Assembly (NCBI GenBank): GCA_017499595.2
Contig: CM039001.1
Coordinates: 2,666,001 to 2,730,000, forward strand
From: Psilocybe cubensis
Taxonomy: Eukaryota
Direction: 5' to 3'
DNA: 64,000 bases
The translations under genes and the position numbers were made by a program. The notes below the pieces were generated by a model. It was not told the origin of the DNA. It saw only the letters and a list, made by a program, of their open reading frames with translations, and did not search any database. Position 1 is the first letter of the stretch, and each line of letters opens with the position of its first letter. Below, piece by piece: positions 36,048-37,686 of this stretch.

Positions 36048-37686
36048 ATGTCAGACGCAGGAGAACCGTCAAATGAGCCCGTCGTAAACAAGAACAAGGC
36101 TCACAGGAAAGATAAACGTATTTGACTTTTATCAGTTTCTTGTAGGCTGCTAATCACCCAAATTTGTGTAGCTTGGGACACCGAGGATATTGACCAGTGA
36201 GTTCCTTTAGAAATTATCAAATTTCCAACATTTTAATGTTTTTCATTACAGCGTAAGCATTCTTTTTTAATATGCTACTTCTTATGTCTCTTATTCTGCG
36301 TGTTCATTAGTGGAAAATCGACCCATTCCTACCTACAGACAACAAGGCTGGGCCTTTCAGAGAGGAATCGTCTTTTGCTACTCTCTTCCCAAAATACCGT
36401 GAAAAATATCTACGCGAAGTATGGAGTGCTGTAACAAAAGCTCTAGAAGCCCATGTATGCCCTTTCCTTAATTGACCTGAACGATTTGACCTTGACTATT
36501 CAACTAGGGTATTGCATGTACGCTTGATCTTGTCCACGGTTCAATGTCGGTCAGGACTACACGCAAAACATTCGACCCTTATATGATTTTGAAAGCACGA
36601 GATATGATCAAGCTCATGGCGCGTGGTGTGGCAATCAACCAAGCAGTCAAAGTTCTACAAGACGATATGGCTTGTGATATTATAAAAATCGGAAACTTGG
36701 TGCGGAATAAAGAAAGATTTGTGAAGCGAAGGCAGAGAATCATTGGACCGGATGGAAGTACTCTGAAGGTGCGTTGCAAAGCCTTCTTTGCGCGTCATTT
36801 TGGTCATCAAACCTCGGCAGGCCATTGAACTTCTTACAAATTGCTATGTCCTTGTGCAAGGAAATACCGTCAGTGTGATGGGCCCGTTCAAAGCACTCAA
36901 AGAAGTCCGGAGAATAGTTCTCGATTGCATGAAAAATATACACCCTATCTACAGAATCAAGGTAAGACGACATTGCTTTGTGCCATTACTTTTCCTAACT
37001 TTCCCAAACAGGAACTTATGATCCGTCGTGAACTAGCAAAAGATCCCAAACTCGCTGGAGAATCATGGGATCGCTTCCTACCTCAGTTCCGCAAACGTCA
37101 TCTGAAGACTTCAGAAAAGACTGCCAAGAAGAACGAGAAACTTGAGGCAAAGGTGGAGGCTCGTAAAGCTGCTGGGATCGAGACCACCGCCGAAGAGCTG
37201 GCGAGGGCGCAAGCCAAAAAGAAAGTATATACCCCTTTCCCTCCAGCACAATTACCAAGAAAGGTCAGAATTTTTCAATTGGGCATATTCAGTTTTGTAT
37301 CTGATTTTCTATTCGTACTTCGTACCCACACATTTAGGTCGATCTTCAACTCGAATCAGGGGAATACTTCCTCAAGCAGTCAGAAAAAGAGGCACGGGAA
37401 ATAGCGAAGAGAAAGCAACAAGTAAGTAAATATATTATTTTCACCCAAATTTGTCTGATGAAAACAACGTTCTTAGCAAGCGGAAACCACCGAAAAAAGG
37501 CGTGCAGAACGTGCAGAAGCCTTTATTGCACCTGCCGAAACAACAGAGCCAACCGTTGAAGAAAAGAGGCGGCACAAGAAGCGAGCAGCTATGGAGATGG
37601 AAATGGACGATGAAGAACCTGAAGGGATCGAAAAGTCCAAAAAGCGGAAAAAGAGAAAAGAAAAGAAGGTTGATGAAGAAAGTTGA
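36048..37686 (+). CDS. KRR1: Small-subunit processome KH-domain protein Krr1
   Basis: [72 protein letters not shown]; includes a 1-nt exon at 36252. Confidence 0.97.

Follow-up and report, generated by a model that had tools for sequence, protein, structure and literature searches.

A single-nucleotide coding exon in the KRR1 gene of Psilocybe cubensis and its recurrence in KRR1 loci of related fungi

The stretch of Psilocybe cubensis DNA considered here, 64,000 nucleotides (nt) long (NCBI GenBank assembly GCA_017499595.2, contig CM039001.1, positions 2,666,001 to 2,730,000 of the forward strand; hereafter, the window, with positions counted from its first letter), carries a KRR1 (Krr1/Mis3) gene in which a single base, C36252, is a genuine exon of its own, flanked by two complete introns of normal size. 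KRR1 is an essential ribosome-biogenesis gene whose product is a 90S factor, and the base in question supplies the third letter of a histidine codon within the conserved WDTxDIDxWK motif. We consider it very probable that this one-base exon is constitutively included and that its placement between two ordinary introns, denoted A and B below, is an ancient arrangement. The structure of the gene is summarized in Table 1.

The assignment of the gene follows from its predicted protein. The exon peptides match the Pfam domains KH_KRR1_1st (PF17903, E 4e-20) and KH_KRR1_2nd (PF21800, E 7e-24), and the peptide of exon 4 is 100% identical to a UniRef protein (P0001) named 'KRR1 small subunit processome component, Psilocybe cubensis'. 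A full-length, correctly annotated relative (P0036) matches yeast Krr1 from the structures of the 90S pre-ribosome (5wlc_NK) with E 5e-134. With both KH1 and KH2 domains and an end-to-end likeness to Krr1, the gene is, by homology, KRR1/Krr1/Mis3, coding for a component of the small-subunit processome. The DIDHWK of P0036 is aligned to the DIDKWK of yeast Krr1 gap-free, so that exactly one codon is expected between DID and WK.

Within the window, canonical splicing offers a single way to obtain this codon. Exhaustive enumeration yielded no single intron with GT or GC at its start and AG at its end that keeps the frame free of stops, and exactly one frame-keeping solution with two introns and a micro-exon of 1-30 nt, namely, C36252 between introns A and B. 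On translation, the nine-exon model that includes the base (plus strand, with eight introns of 50-74 nt, all GT..AG) gives an open frame of 395 amino acids (aa) containing KPWDTEDIDHWKIDPF; omission of C36252 shifts the frame and leads to a stop after about 72 codons, and retention of the entire 114 nt between exons 2 and 4 leads to an immediate stop.

The splicing pattern is seen directly in sequencing runs. Four of the five runs that contain the stretch were compared (X1 to X4), none of which is on record as RNA. X1 and X2, two samples of one study whose kind was guessed as RNA, each yield one spliced contig (1400 and 1304 nt, respectively), from which all eight introns are gone at the predicted GT..AG sites; because these contigs lack every intron, we take both runs to be transcript-derived. 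At the joint from 36196 to 36311, where 114 letters are skipped, the contigs of both runs have exactly one letter, C. Neither a skipped form nor a G at the joint is present in the X1 and X2 contigs, which, as contigs, drop rare variants. C36252 has a complete AG-ending intron upstream, a complete GT-starting intron downstream and a place in the transcript, as a single-nucleotide spliceosomal exon should. X3 and X4 are DNA from a second study, the former near-identical to the window and possibly its source, the latter from another strain with 6 differences. Both are colinear with the stretch, have no insertion or deletion and show no difference inside 36197-36310; given that no letters are lost or gained in either, an insertion or deletion introduced by the assembly is excluded. 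A separate observation concerns position 36579, the third base of a proline codon in exon 5, where the window has T and all four runs, including the near-identical X3, have G; this synonymous change could reflect strain variation or an erroneous base in the assembly.

A sequence-only reading of the window had already placed the exon at C36252, between introns of 55 and 58 nt that together with it span 36197-36310, and all these coordinates are reproduced here. Its argument that excising the 114 nt as one intron would shift the frame, and that the KRR1 frame and the WDTxDIDxWK motif depend on the base, is borne out by the early stop, the enumeration and the spliced contigs. The comparison of inclusion with skipping in RNA that it proposed has come out as inclusion, with one C in the contigs of X1 and X2; the assembly error that it named as grounds for abandoning the idea is ruled out by the DNA runs; and the search that it suggested for AG-N-GT at the same codon in other Agaricomycete KRR1 genes has been positive in 70 of 80 loci.

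These 80 loci are the best of 296 confirmed relatives that were identified by scanning metagenome contigs with the exon-4 peptide. In the 70 loci, the spacer between the WDTxDID and WK exons has the form CA/GT..AG/N/GT..AG/TGG, where slashes mark the boundaries of exons and introns. Two loci (L003 and L020) are cut upstream, yet ag/T/gt and ag/C/gt, respectively, are visible in them; one (L002) is too short to judge; and seven (L074 to L080) are intronless at the His codon. Clustering at a spacer identity of at least 85% reduced the 70 loci and the window to 50 clusters, that is, 49 besides the window. The single base is C in 25 clusters (including that of the window), T in 24 and A in one. 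The sequence logo across the 50 clusters is strict: between AG and GT, the single base is a pyrimidine in 49/50; position -3 is a pyrimidine in 50/50, position +3 is a purine in 49/50 and position +5 is G in 48/50. When spacers were shuffled, a suitably placed AG-N-GT appeared in 9.1% of the trials, or 5.7% if the middle base had to be a pyrimidine, compared with 50/50 real clusters (one with a GC donor); judged by this comparison of sequences, the placement is beyond chance.

The dimensions of the spacer are conserved as well. Across the 50 clusters, the median lengths are 57 nt for intron A and 53 nt for intron B, and those of three other KRR1 introns are 52-55 nt; this match shows the spacer to be two standard introns rather than one long intron. 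An AG acceptor is located 25 nt upstream of donor A in 50/50 clusters, and the 25-nt exon 2 is, accordingly, conserved along with the one-base exon. No single canonical intron would keep the frame in 41/50 clusters. The three other KRR1 introns are present in 35/36, 34/35 and 28/28 of the clusters that could be evaluated, and no extra constraint on the pair of introns A and B is evident relative to these three; given that the other introns are equally conserved, the persistence of the arrangement requires no special function. Two peculiarities were observed among the loci. In L023, from a Serendipita- or Tulasnella-like fungus, the second donor, about 54 nt upstream of position 1501, is GC (ag/c/gcacgt), the sole such case in the 70 loci. 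In a cluster of three KRR1-like loci with Clavulina as the nearest relative (L041, L071 and L072), the single base is A, yielding Gln, and WDTDDID has decayed to SNTDDNK; this cluster may represent a paralogue or a fast-evolving lineage.

One-base-exon loci occur widely among mushroom-forming and related fungi. The nearest named proteins come from Russulaceae (92-96% on exon 4), Thelephora, Athelia, Piloderma and Amanita, and further from Leucocoprinus, Agaricus, Suillus and Serendipita-, Tulasnella- and Botryobasidium-like fungi. In a quick maximum-likelihood tree of 52 rows (29 of the 166 named proteins and 23 of the 80 loci, from the WK exon on), the one-base-exon loci with these nearest relatives fall inside Agaricomycetes. 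L073, whose single base is C and whose two flanking introns measure 93 and 90 nt, is placed beside the Tremellomycetes Phaffia and Mrakia at a Shimodaira-Hasegawa-like approximate likelihood ratio test (SH-aLRT) value of 99. Among the loci that are intronless at this site, L077 groups with Malassezia, and L074 and L080 lie outside the Agaricomycotina clade (support 98). From this distribution, the arrangement YAG/Y/GTRNG is ancestral at least to Agaricomycetes and, as indicated by the single locus L073, is probably ancestral to Agaricomycotina. The annotations of Phaffia, Mrakia and Calocera read DIDQYVWK, DIDQWK, DIDQCWK and DIDQYWK, a pattern that is compatible with the same CA/GT donor but is no proof of it. 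In L073 (positions 1751-2152), the intron found between STLK and AIELL in 34/35 evaluable clusters is absent, but the pair of introns around the single base is still there.

As for the origin of the arrangement, introns A and B are 55.7% alike within a locus and 53.5% alike between loci, showing no sign that one arose by duplication of the other. Two neighbouring introns, in phase 2 and phase 0, respectively, would fit better than a cryptic exon within a long intron, considering that each half is of standard length.

The proteins of relatives provide a second line of evidence and, at the same time, expose the extent to which the exon has been missed. We classified 217 such proteins by the junction between DID and WK. 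An unannotated set consists of contiguous open reading frames on short Logan/JGI contigs and, for that reason, is taken to derive from spliced RNA; it includes 28 proteins of at least 300 aa. The junction is DID-H-WK in 22/22 of those that bear the motif, and Q in none; in the other 6 of the 28 (P0086, P0160, P0180, P0213, P0215 and P0216), the pattern does not match WDTxDID. The 166 proteins from public genome annotations present a different picture: 33 have the H junction, 33 have the Q junction (DIDQWK), 36 have a translated intron inserted after H or Q, 49 lack the WDTxDID motif and 15 are unclassifiable. In this sample, the transcript-supported junction is found in just 33 of the 166 public annotated KRR1 proteins.

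Individual records illustrate how these errors come about. Agaricus bisporus is represented by three records (P0102, P0103 and P0191) that read DIDHWK, DIDQWK and DIDHVKTSSGQRSLSLPIGG, the last with an insertion; the coexistence of three junctions annotated for one species shows the Gln form, like the insertions, to be an artefact of gene modelling. The Psilocybe cyanescens annotation is flagged 'LOW QUALITY PROTEIN' and reads DIDQSVPFNLRWK. For P. cubensis itself, P0001 (375 aa) equals the 395-aa model minus residues 13-32 (20 residues) and is otherwise identical; its gene model splices from a GT within exon 1 straight to the WKIDPF exon, and the conserved KPWDTEDIDH segment is lost through this join. 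Such disorder, centred on the His codon, is what would be expected if gene predictors are unable to emit 1-nt exons.

Several points weigh against a constitutive and ancient one-base exon. The RNA nature of X1 and X2 is a guess, and both come from one study; being contigs, they are blind to rare isoforms, splicing intermediates and splicing order; and the transcript strain has three exonic differences from the window. For 9/50 clusters, one canonical intron would also suffice to keep the frame, in each case with a change in the number of residues. Branch-point motifs are uninformative: the loose YTDAY motif is present in 34 and 31 of 50 introns compared to 55% in shuffles, and the CTRAY motif in 12 and 13 of 50 introns compared to 17% in shuffles. 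Finally, L073, the sole Tremellomycete-like locus, is one of these nine; its alternative single intron yields DIDQYWK and has a poor GTGCCC donor, so that beyond Agaricomycetes the case for the arrangement is made by splice-site quality and homology rather than by transcripts.

Among the alternatives, the one that fares best treats the skipping of C36252 as a regulated switch, an idea put forward in the sequence-only reading, whereby the joining of 36196 to 36311 would produce a frameshifted KRR1 mRNA that is targeted by nonsense-mediated mRNA decay (NMD) and tunes ribosome biogenesis. Such a switch would be served by the premature stop after about 72 codons and by the canonical GT..AG ends of the combined 114-nt intron, and an artificial 1-nt exon in potato invertase is skipped in a third of the transcripts (as cited in PMC4674806). 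However, the contigs of X1 and X2 contain the inclusion form alone, with the proviso that rare forms are dropped by contigs, His is present in all 22 motif-bearing transcript-like proteins of relatives, and introns A and B are no better conserved than the three other KRR1 introns compared with them; a regulated switch therefore seems unlikely. A broader proposal, to which we attach similarly little weight, combines depth and function: the exon would be older than any other single-nucleotide exon known, inherited from the ancestor of Agaricomycotina (Tremellomycetes, Dacrymycetes and Agaricomycetes), and its error-prone, obligatorily ordered splicing would serve as a gauge linked to NMD. Were this the case, a drop in splicing capacity or fidelity would cause the base to be skipped, KRR1 mRNA would be lost through NMD, and the production of 40S subunits would be throttled.

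It is very improbable that the X1 and X2 contigs stem from DNA, namely, from a processed (retrotransposed) gene copy, instead of RNA. The label of these runs is a guess and they may be DNA, but they hold about half of the words sampled from the gene, as expected without introns, in small assemblies of 18-20 million letters, and there is no intronless copy on the stretch in the DNA runs; moreover, a retrocopy would be a copy of spliced mRNA, and hence, the C would be present anyway. A single non-canonical intron of 113 nt (TG..AG or GT..TA), with the junction GACCAGTGG leaving CAG for Gln, would agree with the 33 of 166 public annotations that read DID-Q-WK but is rejected because the contigs of X1 and X2 both have C at the joint, where this intron would leave G; with Q in 0/22 motif-bearing transcript-like proteins and with H, Q and an insertion all annotated in A. 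bisporus, which marks Q as a modelling artefact, there is hardly any chance that this intron exists. An assembly error or a frameshifted pseudogene, in which an exon base is missing and the real gene has one ordinary intron, is suggested by the oddity of the structure alone and is rejected with near certainty, given that two DNA runs, one from a strain with 6 differences, are colinear without insertions or deletions and that the architecture is shared by 49 further spacer clusters, drawn from independent metagenomes.

Table 1. Features of the KRR1 gene in the window (positions from the first letter of the window)
Feature	Positions	Strand	Description
KRR1 (Krr1/Mis3) gene	36048-37686	+	ATG to TGA; nine coding exons, eight introns, 395 aa; joints confirmed by X1/X2 spliced contigs
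Exon 1	36048-36117	+	70 nt; 23 residues plus first base of Pro codon; joint 36117 to 36172 confirmed in contigs
Intron 1	36118-36171	+	54 nt, GTATTT..GTGTAG; model and contig joint (54 skipped, GT..AG)
Exon 2	36172-36196	+	25-nt micro-exon; (P)WDTEDID plus CA of His codon; ends GAT ATT GAC CA
Intron A	36197-36251	+	55 nt, GTGAGT..TTACAG; own canonical donor and acceptor
Exon 3	36252	+	single C; third base of His codon CAC; in X1/X2 contigs
Intron B	36253-36310	+	58 nt, GTAAGC..CATTAG; own canonical donor and acceptor
Exon 4	36311-36454	+	144 nt; opens TGG AAA ATC GAC; WKIDPF...ALEAH, start of Krr1 KH1 domain
Exon 5	36508-36768	+	nine-exon model
Exon 6	36821-36961	+	nine-exon model
Exon 7	37012-37263	+	nine-exon model
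Exon 8	37338-37421	+	nine-exon model
Exon 9	37477-37686	+	nine-exon model

The part of the gene that encodes the N-terminus is finely divided, with exons of 70, 25 and 1 nt and introns of 54, 55 and 58 nt between them. Short fungal introns are recognised across the intron, a mode known as intron definition. Under the preferred reading, that of a constitutive one-base exon, introns A and B would each be recognised in this manner, and because recognition of such introns proceeds across the intron, an exon of one base poses no obstacle to it. Their removal would be sequential, as the sequence-only reading supposed: the acceptor AG of intron A falls inside the region of donor B that pairs with U1 (-3 to +6), so that the two splicing reactions can hardly be simultaneous. 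We lean, with modest preference, towards intron A leaving first, co-transcriptionally, since it is transcribed first. Its removal would create CAC/GTAAGC, a fresh 5' splice site for a second round of splicing, and the site would then act as a ratchet point shifted by one base. A pyrimidine as the single base keeps the His codon (CAY), and the constraint on the base may stem from the protein or from the splice sites. The persistence of the arrangement would reflect the general intron conservatism of these fungi, not a special function.

Exons of one base have precedents in plants and fungi. In Arabidopsis thaliana, APC11 contains such an exon (Guo & Liu 2015; PMC4674806), and as described in that report, it resembles the KRR1 exon in being constitutive, flanked by GT..AG introns, required for the frame and mis-annotated publicly. 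Its authors propose removal of the introns one after another, through a combination of intron definition and recursive splicing; in potato invertase, as discussed in the same report, the second intron is removed first. APC11 differs in that it is a plant gene of the anaphase-promoting complex, whereas the KRR1 exon is documented across a fungal class. Its splicing is also described as indifferent to whether the base is a purine or a pyrimidine (PMC4674806), whereas in KRR1 the base is a pyrimidine in 49/50 clusters.

A 1-nt exon in the Fusarium P450 gene CYP621A was presented by Nelson & Syed (2026; PMC12940212) as the second example and the first in fungi. Like that of KRR1, it is a fungal exon in a conserved motif, inferred from phase incompatibility and, by the account given there, confirmed by public RNA reads, and the report likewise carries a warning about annotation. 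The differences are that CYP621A belongs to Ascomycota, with orthologues at the level of Fusarium (24 genes), that its base is always G (AGGGT), in the middle of a Gly codon, and that it is a non-essential gene of the secondary-metabolism type, unlike KRR1. The authors favour a cryptic intronic exon that rescued the loss of one base (PMC12940212), whereas the two halves of the KRR1 spacer are introns of normal size.

For Coprinopsis cinerea, an annotation built on long reads counts 13 one-base exons, spread over 13 genes (PMC12230235). This fungus, too, is an Agaricomycete, and there, too, the omission of micro-exons breaks gene models; in contrast to the present case, the main text leaves the genes unnamed, has 0 mentions of KRR1 or mis3 and gives no conservation across species (PMC12230235). 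With these 13 exons and the one in Fusarium CYP621A, the statement of the sequence-only reading that 1-nt exons are very rarely documented is outdated. In the full-text literature, we found no paper that links KRR1 or mis3 to a one-base exon, although the supplementary list of the Coprinopsis study may include KRR1.

Two other kinds of unusual splicing invite comparison. Recursive splicing at zero-nucleotide exons, or ratchet points, is described in Drosophila (bioRxiv 10.1101/006163), and in the basidiomycete C. neoformans, a zero-nt exon of BOT1 is reported to be processed by stepwise removal at a juxtaposed acceptor and donor (bioRxiv 10.1101/224170). The common features are an adjoining acceptor and donor (YAG/GTRAGT), splicing of the upstream part first and re-creation of the 5' splice site (bioRxiv 10.1101/224170). 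However, a ratchet point leaves nothing in the mRNA and usually subdivides a long intron, whereas the KRR1 site keeps one coding base and separates introns of minimal size; with a retained base between AG and GT instead of AG/GT, the likeness is mechanistic only. Stwintrons, complex intervening sequences of fungi, are likewise removed by two consecutive standard splicing reactions (PMC5639578, PMC6616335), but a stwintron has one intron nested within a splicing element (donor, branch or acceptor) of another, outer intron, and no base remains between them (PMC5639578, PMC6616335). A stwintron is rejected for KRR1, where GT and AG are intact at the ends of both introns and the C stays in the mRNA; the distinction from stwintrons drawn in the sequence-only reading holds, as no splice signal is interrupted and a base is retained.

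One-base exons as such are known, and what is new is KRR1 as the gene that contains one, conservation throughout a class and possibly a subphylum, and the scale of the mis-annotation. Within the literature searched, this is the first one-base exon found for an essential ribosome-biogenesis gene, and no earlier one has been shown to be conserved throughout a class of fungi, as this one is with 49 clusters beside the window. Predictors that are unable to emit 1-nt exons will make the same KRR1 error in every new Agaricomycete genome. The spliceosome of these fungi faces overlapping 3' and 5' splice sites one base apart, which offers a system for the study of splicing in tractable mushrooms, with 50 natural variants at hand.

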